A stretch of 64,000 nucleotides of DNA, taken from a virus. This document shows positions 28,274 through 31,427 of the stretch, in pieces; the first letter of the stretch is position 1; each line of letters starts with the position of its first letter. The translations under genes and the position numbers were made by a program. The stretch is from the IMG/VR virus record IMGVR_UViG_3300023278_000857, positions 1,398 to 65,397 of that record, one strand, 5' to 3'. The notes under the pieces were generated by a model, which saw nothing but the letters and a program-made list of their open reading frames with translations, did no database searches and was not told where the DNA came from.

Positions 28274-28350
28274 GGTTCCTTAGCACAGCTGGATAGTGCA
28301 GCCGCCTTCTAAGCGGCAGGTCATAGGTTCGAATCCTATAGGGACCACCA
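28274..28350 (+). tRNA. tRNA-Arg(UCU)
   Basis: Cloverleaf, anticodon arm GCCGC-CTTCTAA-GCGGC, TTCGAAT T-loop, encoded CCA. Confidence 0.92.
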
Positions 28351-28357
28351 GAATACA

Positions 28358-28441
28358 CCTAGTGATGATAAATGGGGAATCTCAGCGCTCATAACGCTTC
28401 GTCGTAAGACCGAGTTGGTTCGATTCCAACCGCTAGGACCA
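28358..28441 (+). tRNA. Atypical tRNA with CAU anticodon (Met or Ile2) and long variable arm
   Basis: CCTAGTG/CGCTAGG acceptor, AGCG-CTCATAA-CGCT, variable arm GTC-GTAA-GAC, T-arm GTTGG/CCAAC, ACCA. Confidence 0.75.
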
Positions 28442-28488
28442 ATAATCTGTTACGCAGTGGTTTTAAGTTCGAATAGATAAATAACTAT

Positions 28489-28926
28489 ATGAACAAATGT
28501 AACCACTGCGAAGCAGACACAAACAACCCAAAGTTTTGTAGCAAATCTTGTGCTGCAAAATATAATAACAAAGGTGTTAGACGGCACGGCAAAGATCCTA
28601 TTAAGTGTGTAGTATGTAATACAGAAACACGCAATAAGAAATTTTGTAGTAGTAAGTGTTCAGGCTCTGTTAGGAAAAAAGATCCTAAACTAATAGCCGC
28701 AAGTAATGCCGCAAGGCAAGCACGTTACAGAGCAAAGTATGGATATAATAGAGCATATGCCAAAGACGCCAATAAAGAAGTGATGAAGATGATATATGAG
28801 AATTGTCCAGTGGGACACGAAGTAGACCATATTATGCCATTGTCAAAAGGCGGACTACACCACGAAGATAATCTACAATATCTTACTGTAAAAGAAAATA
28901 GGAAAAAAGGTAATAGTACTCCTTAA
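28489..28926 (+). mobile_element. Free-standing HNH endonuclease gene 1 in the tRNA island
   Basis: Two CxxC...FCSxxC Zn repeats, then HEVDHIMPLSKGG...NLQYLT..EN. Confidence 0.8.
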
Positions 28927-28929
28927 GAG

Positions 28930-29100
28930 TACCAAAAGACGTGTTGGGTAGCACCAGCTAGTATGGGTTAGCAAATCCCATATGACGAGAAGTGATGTTG
29001 CAGTCACAACAAAAGGCTCGATGAAAGTATTCCGGCATGTGTTTGTCGTTAGCGTGGATAGGCGGAGCGAAAGCGTTGAGAACCTCCCACGCATACACAG
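28930..29100 (+). ncRNA. Unclassified structured RNA candidate in the tRNA island
   Basis: Stacked hairpins TATGGG/CCCATA, GTGA/TCAC, GCGTGG/CCACGC with a GC-GAAA-GC tetraloop; no plausible ORF on this strand. Confidence 0.45.
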
Positions 29101-29112
29101 AAATTAGATACT

Positions 29113-29197
29113 GCCCGCGTGATGGAATGGTAGACATAACAGACTTAAAATCTGTGGCCTTCAAGGCGTGTCGGTTCGAGTCCGACCGCGGGTACCA
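29113..29197 (+). tRNA. tRNA-Leu(UAA)
   Basis: ACAGA-CTTAAAA-TCTGT, long variable arm, A73-CCA. Confidence 0.92.
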
Positions 29198-29202
29198 AAA
29201 AT

Positions 29203-29293
29203 GGAAGTGAGACTTGGTAGTCAGAGGAGTCTTATAAGCTCTTTGCGCCAGATTAGCGCCTTTGAGGTGGTTCGAATCCACCCACTTCTACCA
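29203..29293 (+). tRNA. tRNA-Ile(UAU) with long variable arm
   Basis: GGAAGTG/CACTTCT acceptor, GGAGT-CTTATAA-GCTCT, variable arm GCGC-CAGATTA-GCGC, T-arm, ACCA. Confidence 0.8.
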
Positions 29294-29314
29294 ATTTAAA
29301 CGACAGACGAATAG

Positions 29315-29343
29315 TTGACAGACACTAAATAAACTGTTATAAT
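29315..29343 (+). promoter_or_regulatory. Consensus sigma70 promoter within the tRNA island
   Basis: TTGACA-17bp-TATAAT. Confidence 0.8.
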
Positions 29344-29398
29344 AAACAAGTAAGCAAAGACGTTTACAACGCTATTTAAGATTTAAGAAACTAAATGT

Positions 29399-29473
29399 TC
29401 CGACGTAGCTCAGCGGTAGAGCAGTTGACTGTTAATCAATTGGTCGTAGGTTCGATCCCTACCGTCGGAGCCA
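29399..29473 (+). tRNA. tRNA-Asn(GUU)
   Basis: TTGA-CTGTTAA-TCAA anticodon arm, G73-CCA. Confidence 0.92.
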
Positions 29474-29479
29474 AAATAA

Positions 29480-29570
29480 GGAGAGTTGGCCGAGTGGCTT
29501 AAGGCACCCGATTACTAATCGGACGAACGTTAATAGCGTTCCGTGGGTTCGAATCCCACACTCTCTGCCA
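29480..29570 (+). tRNA. tRNA-Ser with ACU anticodon
   Basis: GGAGAGT/ACTCTCT acceptor, G73, long variable arm, CCGA-TTACTAA-TCGG (anticodon 29514-29516). Confidence 0.85.
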
Positions 29571-29584
29571 TAATAAATAAGTAC

Positions 29585-29662
29585 ATGGTTAATAAATGTC
29601 CTGAATGTAAATTTGAATTGGATCATAATGATTTTTGTCCAATTTGTAGAGTAAAAAGATAA
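29585..29662 (+). CDS. 25-aa CxxC...CxxC zinc-ribbon micropeptide (absent from ORF track)
   Basis: MVNKCPECKFELDHNDFCPICRVKR*; preceded by ATAAATA-N5-ATG. Confidence 0.55.
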   Translation: MVNKCPECKFELDHNDFCPICRVKR

Positions 29663-29707
29663 CGCCGCAATAGATGGTTTAGTTTTGCTCAACTAATAGA
29701 GCAAATT

Positions 29708-29737
29708 TTGCTTAAAAGGATAAATACTTTTGAGCAA
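29708..29737 (+). promoter_or_regulatory. Hairpin with late promoter GATAAATA in its loop, just upstream of the HNH2 RBS
   Basis: TTGCTTAAAAG-GATAAATA-CTTTTGAGCAA then GGGAGA and ATG29749. Confidence 0.65.
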
Positions 29738-29748
29738 GGGAGACACCA

Positions 29749-30255
29749 ATGTTTAAATGCGGTGAATGTAAAAAAGAATATGCTACCCAAAGAGCGTTGA
29801 ACGCACATATGGTAGCACATAAAGAAGGAAGTAGATATAGCGTTAGCAGAGCAGGACCTATAAAAACATTTATATGTCTACACTGTGGAAATGAAAACAA
29901 ATGGTCACACTCGACTAAGAATAAATTTTGTAATTTAGAGTGCCAACATAGTTTCCAACATAACGAACACATTCGTAGTTGGAAGGAAACAGGTAAACTA
30001 AGCAAAGGACCAGTTAAGCGTTACTTGGCAGAACAAGTAAGTGGATGCTGGGAGTGCGGAATTACTGAGTGGAACCAAAAGCCAATTGTGTTAGAATTAG
30101 AACACAAAGATGGCAATTCAGAAAATAACGCTGAAGATAATCTAAGTTTGTTATGTCCTAACTGTCATAGTCAGACATCAACATACAAGGGTAGAAATAA
30201 AGGAAACGGACGACATAGTAGAATGAAACGCTATTATGAAGGACAAAGTTTCTAA
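29749..30255 (+). mobile_element. Free-standing HNH endonuclease gene 2
   Basis: C2H2 finger, FCNLEC, CWECG...LELEHKDGNSENN...NLSLLCPNCH. Confidence 0.85.
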
Positions 30256-30330
30256 GCTGATGTGGCCCAATGGTAAGGCAACTGATTTGTAATCAGTAGA
30301 TTGGGAGTTCGATCCTCTCCATCAGCACCA
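30256..30330 (+). tRNA. tRNA-Thr(UGU)
   Basis: ACTGA-TTTGTAA-TCAGT; starts at the base right after the HNH2 stop codon. Confidence 0.92.
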
Positions 30331-30337
30331 TTAATAT

Positions 30338-30359
30338 GCGCCTGTGGTGAAATTGGTAG
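30338..30359 (+). pseudogene. 5' fragment of a split tRNA-Leu
   Basis: GCGCCTGTGGTGAAATTGGTAG (acceptor 5' strand and D-arm); pairs with CAGGCGC at 31161-31167. Confidence 0.8.
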
Positions 30360-30404
30360 GTAAAACAAATATGCGTTTGTCTACCAACTTAGATAAATAA
30401 CTGT

Positions 30405-31031
30405 ATGAACAATACAGATATACCATTAGGAAAACTTTGCGATAGCGGCTGTGGACAACAGGCACAGTATTTTAGTAAAGACACAGGAAGATATAGGTGT
30501 CTTAAAAGTGCTAACAGTTGTCCTGCTAATAAAGCAAAGAATAGCAAAGGCTTAAAGAAAGCCCACGCTGAAGGAAGAATACCCGTCTTTACAGACGAAA
30601 TGCGTGAGAAATCACATATTAGTCATAGGCGCAAATTAGTAGAAGAGAAACCTTTTGAGGATCTTGGACACATATTGCGGAAAAAGATTGTACTGGAAGA
30701 ACAAGACTACAAGTGCTTACATTGCAATTTAGATGAATGGATGGGGTTGCGTATAACATTAGAGTTGGATCATATCGATGGCAACAATAAAAATAATGTT
30801 AGAAGCAATTTAAGATGCCTTTGCCCTAACTGCCATAGTATTACAGATACTTGGAAAGTAGGAAATATCAAAGGCAAAAACACAAGGAAGCGTAGCGATG
30901 AAGAAATCATCGCTGCCTTTAAGAAGTGTAGTAGTATGAATGCTACATTAAAGGAATTAGGTTATAACTGGGGTAGTGCTGGTACTGTAAAAAAAGTACT
31001 ATTCCAATATAAACTAATAGAAAGTATTTAG
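30405..31031 (+). mobile_element. Free-standing HNH endonuclease gene 3, inserted within the split tRNA-Leu
   Basis: CLHCNLDEW...LELDHIDGNNKNN...NLRCLCPNCH; C-terminal HTH-like tail. Confidence 0.85.
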
Positions 31032-31035
31032 GTAT

Positions 31036-31120
31036 GCGGGTGTGGCGAAATTGGTAACCGCATCACGTTTAGGTCGTGACGCCGCAAGGCTTGGGGGTTC
31101 GAGTCCCTTCACCCGTACCA
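31036..31120 (+). tRNA. tRNA-Leu(UAG), putative replacement copy
   Basis: TCACG-TTTAGGT-CGTGA, long variable arm, A73-CCA; 4 nt after the HNH3 stop. Confidence 0.92.
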
Positions 31121-31130
31121 AATATAAAGG

Positions 31131-31171
31131 TGCTTTACGGCGTGGGGGTTCAAGTCCCTCCAGGCGCACCA
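31131..31171 (+). pseudogene. 3' fragment of the split tRNA-Leu (variable arm, T-arm, acceptor 3' strand, CCA)
   Basis: TGCTTTACGGCGTGGGGGTTCAAGTCCCTCCAGGCGCACCA. Confidence 0.8.
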
Positions 31172-31260
31172 TATAAAGGGTTTTGTTCCCCTTGTAAAAC
31201 AATTGAGCAAATGGTGCCCAGGATGTCCTAAGCAGGACCCAAAACTGCTTACACTAATTC

Positions 31261-31345
31261 GTCAATGCGGGTTTGCTAACAGTAACAGACACTACAGGCG
31301 TCATGTCAACTACTGCGGTAAGGTTCGACTCCTTAATTGACACCA
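31261..31345 (+). ncRNA. tRNA-like RNA with a 6-bp acceptor stem and no canonical anticodon arm
   Basis: GTCAAT/ATTGAC plus ACCA, T-arm TAAGG-TTCGACT-CCTTA, D-like stem GTTTG/CAGAC. Confidence 0.55.
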
Positions 31346-31351
31346 AGACAA

Positions 31352-31427
31352 TGGAAAGTAGATCAATTGGTAGATCATTTGTTTTTGGTACAAAAGGTTG
31401 AAGGTTCGAGTCCTTCCTTTCCAGCCA
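31352..31427 (+). tRNA. tRNA-Gln(UUG)
   Basis: U1-A72, G2-C71, G3-C70 and G73 Gln identity elements; TTTGT-TTTTGGT-ACAAA. Confidence 0.88.

Follow-up and report, generated by a model that had tools for sequence, protein, structure and literature searches.

The locus described here holds the two halves of a single transfer RNA gene, a tRNA-Leu, set apart by a 770-nucleotide (nt) insert that carries a gene for a predicted HNH endonuclease (HNH3) together with a second, complete tRNA-Leu(UAG). It lies in a 64,000-nt stretch of viral DNA (the ‘window’), taken from a 72.6-kb IMG/VR viral contig (bases 1398-65397) whose completeness CheckV puts at ~20%. The window encodes a tail sheath, a large terminase, helicases and a ribonucleotide reductase, and is therefore part of a large myovirus, probably a jumbo phage; near and distant DNA searches of INPHARED phage records, along with tblastn of a large window open reading frame (ORF), returned only tRNA similarity and no relatives. 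We take the carrier to be a large marine phage, and find that the insert recurs, as a cassette, inside the predicted tRNA genes of many uncultured phages.

Reading along the + strand, tRNA-Thr(UGU) (30256..30330; ARAGORN, and Rfam at 69 bits) is the left neighbour of the resident tRNA-Leu(UAG), which we refer to as allele A and of which two ‘orphan’ fragments remain. The 5' fragment (30338..30359) comprises nt 1-22, i.e. the acceptor 5' strand and the D-arm as far as GGTAG; the 3' fragment (31130..31171) comprises nt 44-85, i.e. the variable arm, T-arm, acceptor 3' strand, A73 and CCA. Between them sit a 45-nt leader (30360..30404), with homologous leaders in 13 related cassettes; the 627-nt ORF of HNH3 (30405..31031; 208 amino acids); the intact ‘cargo’ tRNA-Leu(UAG), allele B (31036..31120; ARAGORN, and Rfam at 50.5 bits); and a 9-nt AT-rich spacer, AATATAAAG, that forms the right end of the cassette (31121..31129).

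The 5' piece reads GCGCCTG-TG-GTG-AAATTGGTAG and the 3' piece closes with CAGGCGC-A-CCA at 31171, such that the acceptor strands are fully paired (7/7). A naive scan for a 7-nt complement plus NCCA also yields spurious pairs (e.g. 30326/31210), and acceptor complementarity is therefore weak evidence; it is identity to an intact allele that is decisive. A degenerate search of IMG/VR with the 5' piece recovered more than 119 loci (given L-numbers below), at least 19 of which contain allele A unchanged, as an 85-nt tRNA-Leu(UAG). The orphans match this intact gene at 22/22 and 41/41 positions (42/42 counting G31130), where the computed chance expectation for an exact 22-mer is ~7e-9 in 128 kb. 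An earlier note on this DNA had claimed that one tRNA-Leu is split at these coordinates around HNH3 and an intact, sequence-divergent tRNA-Leu(UAG), and had suggested looking for relatives with an unbroken GCGCCTG...CAGGCGC gene; the split, its coordinates and its contents (by ARAGORN, Rfam and ORF) all stand, and the relatives exist, including syntenic ones in which the gene follows tRNA-Thr. Because the halves match allele A base for base, the split gene can be read as a tRNA-Leu with anticodon UAG, the same as the cargo. What is absent from it is 21-22 of the 85 nt (nt 23-43/44), namely the D-stem's 3' strand together with all of the anticodon arm, including the anticodon.

Four loci (L006, L037, L072 and L074) share synteny with the window over 15-20 kb, at 68-75% identity. 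Of these, L006, L037 and L074 reach the tRNA array and have allele A unbroken, with tRNA-Thr(UGU) called by ARAGORN directly 5' of it in L006 and L074; L072 stops within the tRNA and its left neighbour lies outside its sequence. A further locus, L042, has the same Thr-spacer-A junction as the window, with an identical 9-nt stretch (ATTAATATG) across it, and has a homologue of window 31176-31259 on the 3' side of intact A; this 84-nt block is non-coding, is 85% identical between the two, and in L042 adjoins a tRNA-Pro. Eight Thr-Leu pairs of other contigs align in the same order of tRNA-Thr, short spacer and allele A. The locus is thus polymorphic for the presence or absence of the cassette, which is there in the window, with tRNA-Thr followed by intact A in L042, L006, L037, L074, L047, L063 and others. 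We consequently interpret the syntenic loci with intact allele A as empty-site alleles, and the orphan 5' fragment as still occupying its ancestral position after tRNA-Thr. An equivalent empty-site relative, L215, was found for a second cassette locus, L346.

At least 120 marine Alpha- and Gammaproteobacteria have, in their chromosomal tRNA-Leu(UAG), an exact copy of a 34-nt core of allele A that spans D-loop to anticodon arm. Full-length bacterial tRNA-Leu(UAG) genes show at least 7 nt of difference from allele A, chiefly in the acceptor and T stems. The resident allele would therefore be host-like, and the deleted segment is where the gene is best conserved, the type of site that homing endonucleases exploit. 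Since the deleted 22-nt core is identical in the chromosomal tRNA-Leu(UAG) gene of such hosts, HNH3 might cut the host gene too.

Homologues of HNH3 (67-98% identity) were gathered from viral and metagenome contigs, and homologous cassettes occur in at least 12 distinct contexts. The usual order is the first 21-24 nt of another tRNA, the leader, HNH gene, cargo tRNA and AT-rich spacer, often followed by the last 40-45 nt of a tRNA. Wherever downstream sequence is present, an intact tRNA with anticodon UAG starts 0-5 nt after the HNH stop codon (the exception being L341, where it starts 9 nt before it) and, wherever full upstream sequence is present, a homologous leader precedes the ORF, except in the 5'-truncated copy of L003. 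This last copy, with its tRNA-Leu(UAG), follows a tRNA-Ala that is itself preceded by a GOLLD RNA (L003 232-694; 180 bits, above the Rfam gathering score) with an embedded tRNA-Arg. The left junction falls at D-loop nt 21-24 in all cassettes but that of L340, and the right junction at nt 40-45 in the window, L129, L132, L135 and L353. Spacers related to that of the window end the cassette in L129 (AATATAATA) and L353 (AATACACTA). The earlier note had also drawn attention to a spacer, TATAAAGG, repeated after both CCA ends (31123 and 31172); the repeat is present, but nothing marks it as meaningful, as this 8-mer occurs four times in the window against 3.5 expected, and the nearest cassette copy, L129, has AATATAATA at that place.

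Acceptor-complementary orphan pairs were found for six independent targets, fully paired in five and with one G·U in the sixth: GCGCCTG/CAGGCGC in the window, GCGGGTA/TACCCGC in L033 (L033/L123), GCCCGGA/TCCGGGC in L130, GCCCTTA/TAAGGGC in L353, GCGGGTA/TACCCGC in L361 and, with the G·U, the same stem as L361 in L362. The 3' orphan of L132 matches the intact Leu(UAG) of L196. The HNH genes of the window and L129 agree at 603/627 nt (96%) and their cargo tRNAs at 85/85, with flanks that agree at only 17/22 and 29/42; in L129 the cassette sits inside a different tRNA-Leu gene and adjoins a protein gene. In L357-360 the HNH protein is 98% identical and lies inside a GCGGGTA-type tRNA that follows tRNA-Thr. 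Window, L129 and L357 thus hold a near-identical cassette within three different flanking tRNAs (although L357 shares only the 5' part of the cargo). As the cassette recurs almost unchanged inside different tRNAs in L129 and L357-360, we conclude that leader, HNH gene, tRNA and spacer move together between different tRNA-Leu genes and between phages. The earlier note’s idea of a selfish endonuclease-plus-tRNA cassette holds to the extent that this is a discrete mobile unit; its ‘rescue’ by a tRNA of the same anticodon is not general, as discussed below for L033.

HNH3 matches the ‘HNH endonuclease’ families PHROG 14736 and PHROG 10822 (E 7e-25 and 1e-24), with a match to Pfam HNH_3 that falls below threshold (16.9 bits against a cutoff of 24.8). 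Eight residues (C104, C107, H123, N135, C140, N142, C143 and H144) are invariant in 27 aligned homologues; the His and Asn residues among them fit the catalytic and metal-binding positions of an HNH core, and the four Cys its zinc site. An AlphaFold2 model (pLDDT 85) has an N-terminal four-Cys ribbon, three long linker helices, the HNH core and a C-terminal three-helix domain; the core consists of strands 120-123 and 136-139 and helix 141-144, in a ββα arrangement with a Cys4 zinc site. Free-standing homing endonucleases are typically modular in this way. Nearly all Foldseek matches are HNH nucleases, confined to the local HNH core and with weak E-values (0.03-0.3): local alignments of 55-70 residues to Cap5, McrA, ScoMcrA and TagI (25-32% identity, probability up to 0.99), and weaker or longer alignments to I-HmuI (probability 0.41) and Cas9. 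A sequence search of the PDB gave nothing meaningful, and the PHROG and Pfam matches were to HNH families only, with no GIY-YIG domain. We classify HNH3 as a predicted HNH / His-Me finger endonuclease. Pairwise ratios of non-synonymous to synonymous change (dN/dS) among eight homologues are 0.07-0.28, and therefore point to purifying selection and a gene that selection maintains.

The cargo, allele B, has A73, an encoded CCA, a long variable arm and a G1·U72 pair. It departs from allele A in the D-loop (GGTAAC against GGTAGA) and in the anticodon stem (TCACG/CGTGA against CTAGA/TCTAG), and a variant of it in L133/L356 carries compensatory changes in both the D-stem and the anticodon stem; it is these compensatory changes that mark it as a putatively working tRNA. 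Across the HNH3 clade, the canonical D-loop (T/A)TGGTAGA is absent from 14/14 distinct cargo tRNA(UAG) genes, against 32/65 of those not linked to an HNH gene (Fisher p = 2e-4, in a sample biased by the search pattern), the other 33/65 having kept it. In its place the cargo D-loops read GGTAAC, GGTAAA, ATAGGTAGA, ATAGGCAGA, GGCAGA, GGCATA or TTTGGTATA, and the anticodon stems are unusual; L196, initially a candidate for an HNH-linked Leu cargo, was left out of these counts, as the HNH gene there is followed by tRNA-Thr and the Leu gene is an ordinary resident. This correlation is suggestive of a cargo made immune by its differences in D-loop and anticodon stem, whilst in the orphan gene of the window the target site is physically disrupted.

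Synthesising these findings, we consider it likely that HNH3 is a free-standing HNH homing endonuclease nested within its own target gene, to which it brings a putatively resistant spare allele. HNH3 would cut tRNA-Leu genes that have a canonical D-loop and anticodon-arm core, the part that is missing from the split gene; the break would be repaired by recombination with a cassette-bearing genome as template, with the flanking tRNA halves serving as homology arms, much as exons do in intron homing. The cassette would in this way be copied into the resident, host-like tRNA-Leu(UAG), leaving two dead halves, with the cargo allele escaping cleavage through its different D-loop and anticodon stem and, by retaining UAG decoding, imposing little cost on the invaded phage. 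The earlier note spoke of a ‘toxin-antidote’ arrangement, which we would keep as an analogy; a resistant allele beside an endonuclease gene is the normal state in intronless homing.

Several points weigh against this proposal. Cleavage of intact allele A by HNH3 is a prediction from sequence, and the D-loop statistic carries the sampling bias given above. At 22 and 42 nt, the arms that the window offers are short, except for a recipient whose synteny extends beyond the tRNA. B-like alleles occur as ordinary residents, with no HNH gene, in L217 and L215. The tRNA destroyed in L033 has, as its intact allele, a 77-nt gene with anticodon UAA, set against a UAG cargo, and functional replacement is therefore not universal. 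Homology-directed repair alone does not yield the first nested copy either, because a complete cargo tRNA and spacer precede the 3' orphan and ~20 nt of the target are gone; a single illegitimate capture, followed by ordinary homing via the orphan arms, would suffice. As an aside to the 77-nt target of L033, class I tRNAs of ~77 nt (with a short variable loop), Leu anticodons (UAG, UAA or CAA) and A73 are widespread in these phages, at many IMG/VR loci (e.g. L003 1472-1548, L010 and L209 3031-3107), and HNH3-type cassettes have one of them as cargo and another as target; a normal tRNA-Leu belongs to class II.

Not every copy retains two clean halves. In L357 the 3' orphan is absent and the cargo joins the 5' body of allele B to the 3' end of the invaded tRNA, with a G7·U66 pair, and in L130 the acceptor strands of the cargo are mismatched; we read both chimeras as the outcome of a crossover inside the tRNA. 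Were the right crossover to fall there, and not in the orphan half, a chimeric cargo with no 3' remnant would be expected. At L346 and L134 just the 5' orphan is left, or neither half. Such chimeric and one-orphan loci are the products that a break-repair model would predict. Elsewhere just 9-13 nt of the 3' orphan are left (L133/L356 and L341), or its T-loop is altered (L033), and overall the halves are mismatched, truncated or decayed in L129, L133, L341 and L033. Given this decay in older copies, the orphans are remnants on their way out rather than functional RNAs under maintenance; by the same token the two perfect orphans of the window indicate that the cassette entered this tRNA recently.

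These same chimeras could also be taken to favour a more passive origin, in which the split is a scar of illegitimate recombination between tRNA genes through the conserved D- and T-arms and HNH3 is a bystander, taken along as a tRNA neighbour, with another target or purpose (e.g. a SegB-like amplification of tRNAs against tRNA-cleaving host defences). Arrays of tRNA genes are prone to recombination, T6 SegB promotes their segmental amplification (PMC13096335), and recombination within the cassettes themselves is revealed by the mosaic pair L129 and L353, whose leaders are identical (41/41) and whose HNH genes are 86% identical. Chance recombination of this kind sits poorly, though, with a cassette that has the same left junction in at least 12 contexts, with a stop-to-tRNA linkage held tight (0 to +5 nt) over 67-98% HNH identity, with an ORF under purifying selection and with orphan halves significantly associated with HNH genes relative to controls (see below), and it leaves the deviant D-loop of every cargo allele unexplained; we judge it unlikely.

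A very improbable explanation is that the halves still form a tRNA, whether by removal of a 770-nt intron (group I or other) or by trans-joining of the archaeal type. The acceptor strands of the window are perfectly complementary and undecayed, as this would require, and group I introns do occur in cyanobacterial tRNA-Leu genes; yet with the D-stem 3' strand and anticodon arm absent there is no anticodon to restore, the insert holds a complete and independent tRNA, the orphans are in disrepair in the four loci named above, and Rfam at E <= 10 detects no group I or group II intron, or other family, in the insert. That the contig, being metagenome-derived, is simply a chimeric assembly deserves next to no credence, given the same architecture in independent JGI, ENA, Logan and NCBI assemblies. 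Intron splicing and misassembly, both raised in the earlier note, are thus excluded as far as sequence goes, the one by the loss of the anticodon arm and the other by the agreement between assemblies.

The leader has features of its own. As the earlier note had noticed, an inverted repeat, TTGGTAG (30353-30359) / CTACCAA (30381-30387), pairs the orphan D-loop with an arm in the leader, and it is kept in relatives. The window leader folds at -19.7 kcal/mol (z -2.6), and a repeat of 6-9 bp is present in 7/8 cassettes of the HNH3 clade, where the 6-bp versions (several cassettes) are individually unremarkable against shuffles. In L138, a distant locus (37% identity, Leu-UAA cargo), both arms have changed in step to ATCGGTAGTGC/GCACTACCGAT, an 11-bp repeat matched in 0/300 shuffles. 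RNAalifold, applied to the leader and start region, gave no consensus covariation, which is partly an alignment problem; the repeat was scored separately from these alignments. It may, at a guess, contribute to stability or processing of the HNH message. We also note that L340 runs on into GCTAG-TCT, in an alignment which hints that the leader may descend from the 5' part of an older tRNA.

A second hairpin (30401-30417) buries the ATG of HNH3, and in L131, L132 and L123 a double change turns G-C into A-U. The hairpin is reminiscent of the way in which translation of T4 endonuclease genes is known to be restrained; tight control of expression is also discussed in the SegB paper. The motif ATAAATA stands at 30393-30399, 6 nt 5' of the HNH3 ATG, and recurs 5' of all three HNH genes of the array and of structural genes, just before the start of about a dozen window ORFs and in the coding direction (e.g. 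7144(-), 11041(-), 12271, 13616, 16107, 18364, 22270, 41154, 46915, 49952, 52180 and 60893); it is not over-represented in the window as a whole (26 observed against 29 expected). It resembles the T4 late promoter, TATAAATA, and suggests a T4-type late promoter here. Within 28474-29112, HNH1 (145 amino acids, a different HNH type) shares with HNH3 a 23-nt upstream/start sequence, TAGATAAATAACT(A/G)TATGAACAA; on its 3' side lie a 186-nt non-coding stretch, 137 nt of which are 85% identical in L008, and then tRNA-Leu(UAA). Seven of the distant HNH loci (L142, L150, L160, L165, L169, L172 and L177) have GGAGGTTCGAT directly before the ATG, a Shine-Dalgarno sequence fused to a T-loop-like motif (GGTTCGA), which could be a coincidence or a tRNA relic.

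HNH3 and its cargo may not be alone. Immediately upstream, HNH2 (29749..30255, + strand; 168 amino acids) belongs to the same PHROG families, with a C2H2 finger and an HNH core, and ends one base before tRNA-Thr(UGU). The acceptor, D- and T-arms of this tRNA-Thr are unlike the Thr allele of all the relatives, and its anticodon arm is the same; in L196, too, an HNH homologue is directly followed by tRNA-Thr and then by an intact Leu(UAG). We think that HNH2 and tRNA-Thr probably constitute a second endonuclease-plus-tRNA unit, directly 5' of the first, and saw no clear orphan Thr halves near HNH2.

More distant homologues (33-65% identity) lie nearly all in phage tRNA arrays. At 38 non-redundant loci the HNH stop codon has beside it a tRNA on the same strand that starts between -56 and +37 nt from it, mostly between -23 and +15; among these neighbours are Leu-UAA, Lys, Asp, Ile, Met, Cys, Asn, Ala, Val and Ser. 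Orphan 5' halves in 8 of these 38 loci and 3' halves in 6 score above the 99th percentile of a cross-locus control; among them are Asn (L177), Leu-UAA (L138 and L140) and a borderline Ile (L159). At L172 (1764-2434) the gene order is different, an orphan 5' half being followed by an intact tRNA-Arg(CCU), an HNH gene and an orphan 3' half, with acceptor strands CTCGCC/GGCGAG. Taken together, a tentative reading, which we offer with less than even confidence, is that these are self-contained, context-independent homing cassettes that carry a resistant tRNA allele aboard and use the halves of their targets as portable homology arms; the PHROG 14736/10822 family appears on this reading to act on many isotypes, among them Leu-UAG, Leu-UAA, Asn, Ile and Arg. 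Such arms would be usable almost anywhere, because unrelated phages and hosts share conserved D- and T-arms in their tRNAs. If this is true, endonuclease-tRNA cassettes would be a main force in building, shuffling and diversifying the tRNA arrays of large marine phages.

The array to which all of this belongs (28274-31427) comprises nine called tRNAs with the three HNH genes among them, and contains other unusual elements. Class II tRNA bodies, with a long variable arm, are normally Leu, Ser or Tyr, and here three have unexpected anticodons: CAU (28358-28441; 84 nt), UAU (29203-29293; 91 nt) and ACU (29480-29570; 91 nt); for the UAU gene Rfam favours tRNA-Sec, with a score (31 bits) below threshold. 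At 29315-29343, 5' of tRNA-Asn, stands a perfect match to the sigma-70 consensus promoter (TTGACA, 17 nt, TG, TATAAT), and similar TTGACA...TATAAT pairs lie 5' of tRNA blocks in L135 and L346. At the far end, 31261-31346 is a tRNA-like element with acceptor strands GTCAAT/ATTGAC, a T-arm GGTTCGACTCC, a terminal ACCA and a long irregular middle; it is 83% conserved in L047, has no ARAGORN or Rfam call, and folds no better than shuffles (z -0.6).

Homing of the kind that we propose for HNH3 would explain the HNH genes and tRNA fragments that litter phage tRNA arrays, the circulation of isoacceptor alleles with unusual D-loops and anticodon stems, and the movement of tRNA genes between unrelated phages; it could also yield endonucleases that discriminate between alleles of a tRNA gene. 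For annotation, it is a warning that tRNA halves beside HNH genes would be homing scars, and not split or intron-containing tRNAs. The locus should accordingly be of interest to those working on mobile elements, on phage tRNAs and on tRNA-targeting defence.

Searches of the literature, of which our coverage is incomplete, brought up no account of an endonuclease-plus-tRNA cassette that splits a tRNA gene, and the nearest known system is SegB of T4 and T6, which cuts inside tRNA genes and drives inheritance of the tRNA region (PMC2330249, PMC13096335). As here, the SegB endonuclease gene lies amid phage tRNA genes, and its product cuts the tRNA genes of relatives that lack SegB (PMC2330249, PMC13096335); its own gene and the neighbouring tRNA genes are preferentially inherited, and co-localisation with tRNAs is widespread. 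Unlike HNH3, SegB is a GIY-YIG enzyme that recognises a T-psi-C motif and sits between genes; the recipient genes are replaced cleanly via flanking homology, and neither a split target nor a nested replacement allele is described. By analogy, HNH3 would work like SegB without belonging to the SegB family.

The F-Tfl ORFs of phage T5 belong, like HNH3, to the HNH family. F-TflI and F-TflII, together with F-TflIV, are likewise interspersed with phage tRNA genes (PMC2330249), but the passages available, which allow comparison by description only, report no link to split tRNA genes or cargo tRNAs. Closer in logic are SegF, SegG and MobE of T4, agents of intronless homing and marker exclusion, which are free-standing genes beside a resistant target allele, the sensitive allele of a co-infecting phage being cut and converted and the endonuclease gene co-inherited (PMC2330249, PMC2790892). 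In those systems a protein gene is targeted and remains whole, whereas here the sensitive allele is destroyed and the cassette lies inside it.

Group I introns and inteins that carry an endonuclease offer a second parallel, in that the element sits inside the recognition site, the invaded allele is immune and the gene halves act as homology arms; here, in contrast, nothing would be spliced, and function would be restored by the second, complete gene copy that is carried. Integrase-driven islands and prophages also insert into tRNA genes, where they carry a replacement 3' end and leave a displaced tRNA fragment. They share with the cassette a tRNA target, a function restored by the element’s own sequence and the displaced fragment, but the cassette is without an integrase or an att-type direct repeat, supplies a whole tRNA and displaces both halves. 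Fractured genes with split inteins (PMC2677866) are similar in that a host gene is broken in two by an endonuclease gene and a device compensates for the damage, which there is protein trans-splicing of the halves and here would be a substitute gene, with the halves abandoned. Set against all of these, the cassette of the window would represent a third way for a homing endonuclease to spare its carrier, neither spliced out of its target nor lodged beside it, but destroying the target and carrying the spare.

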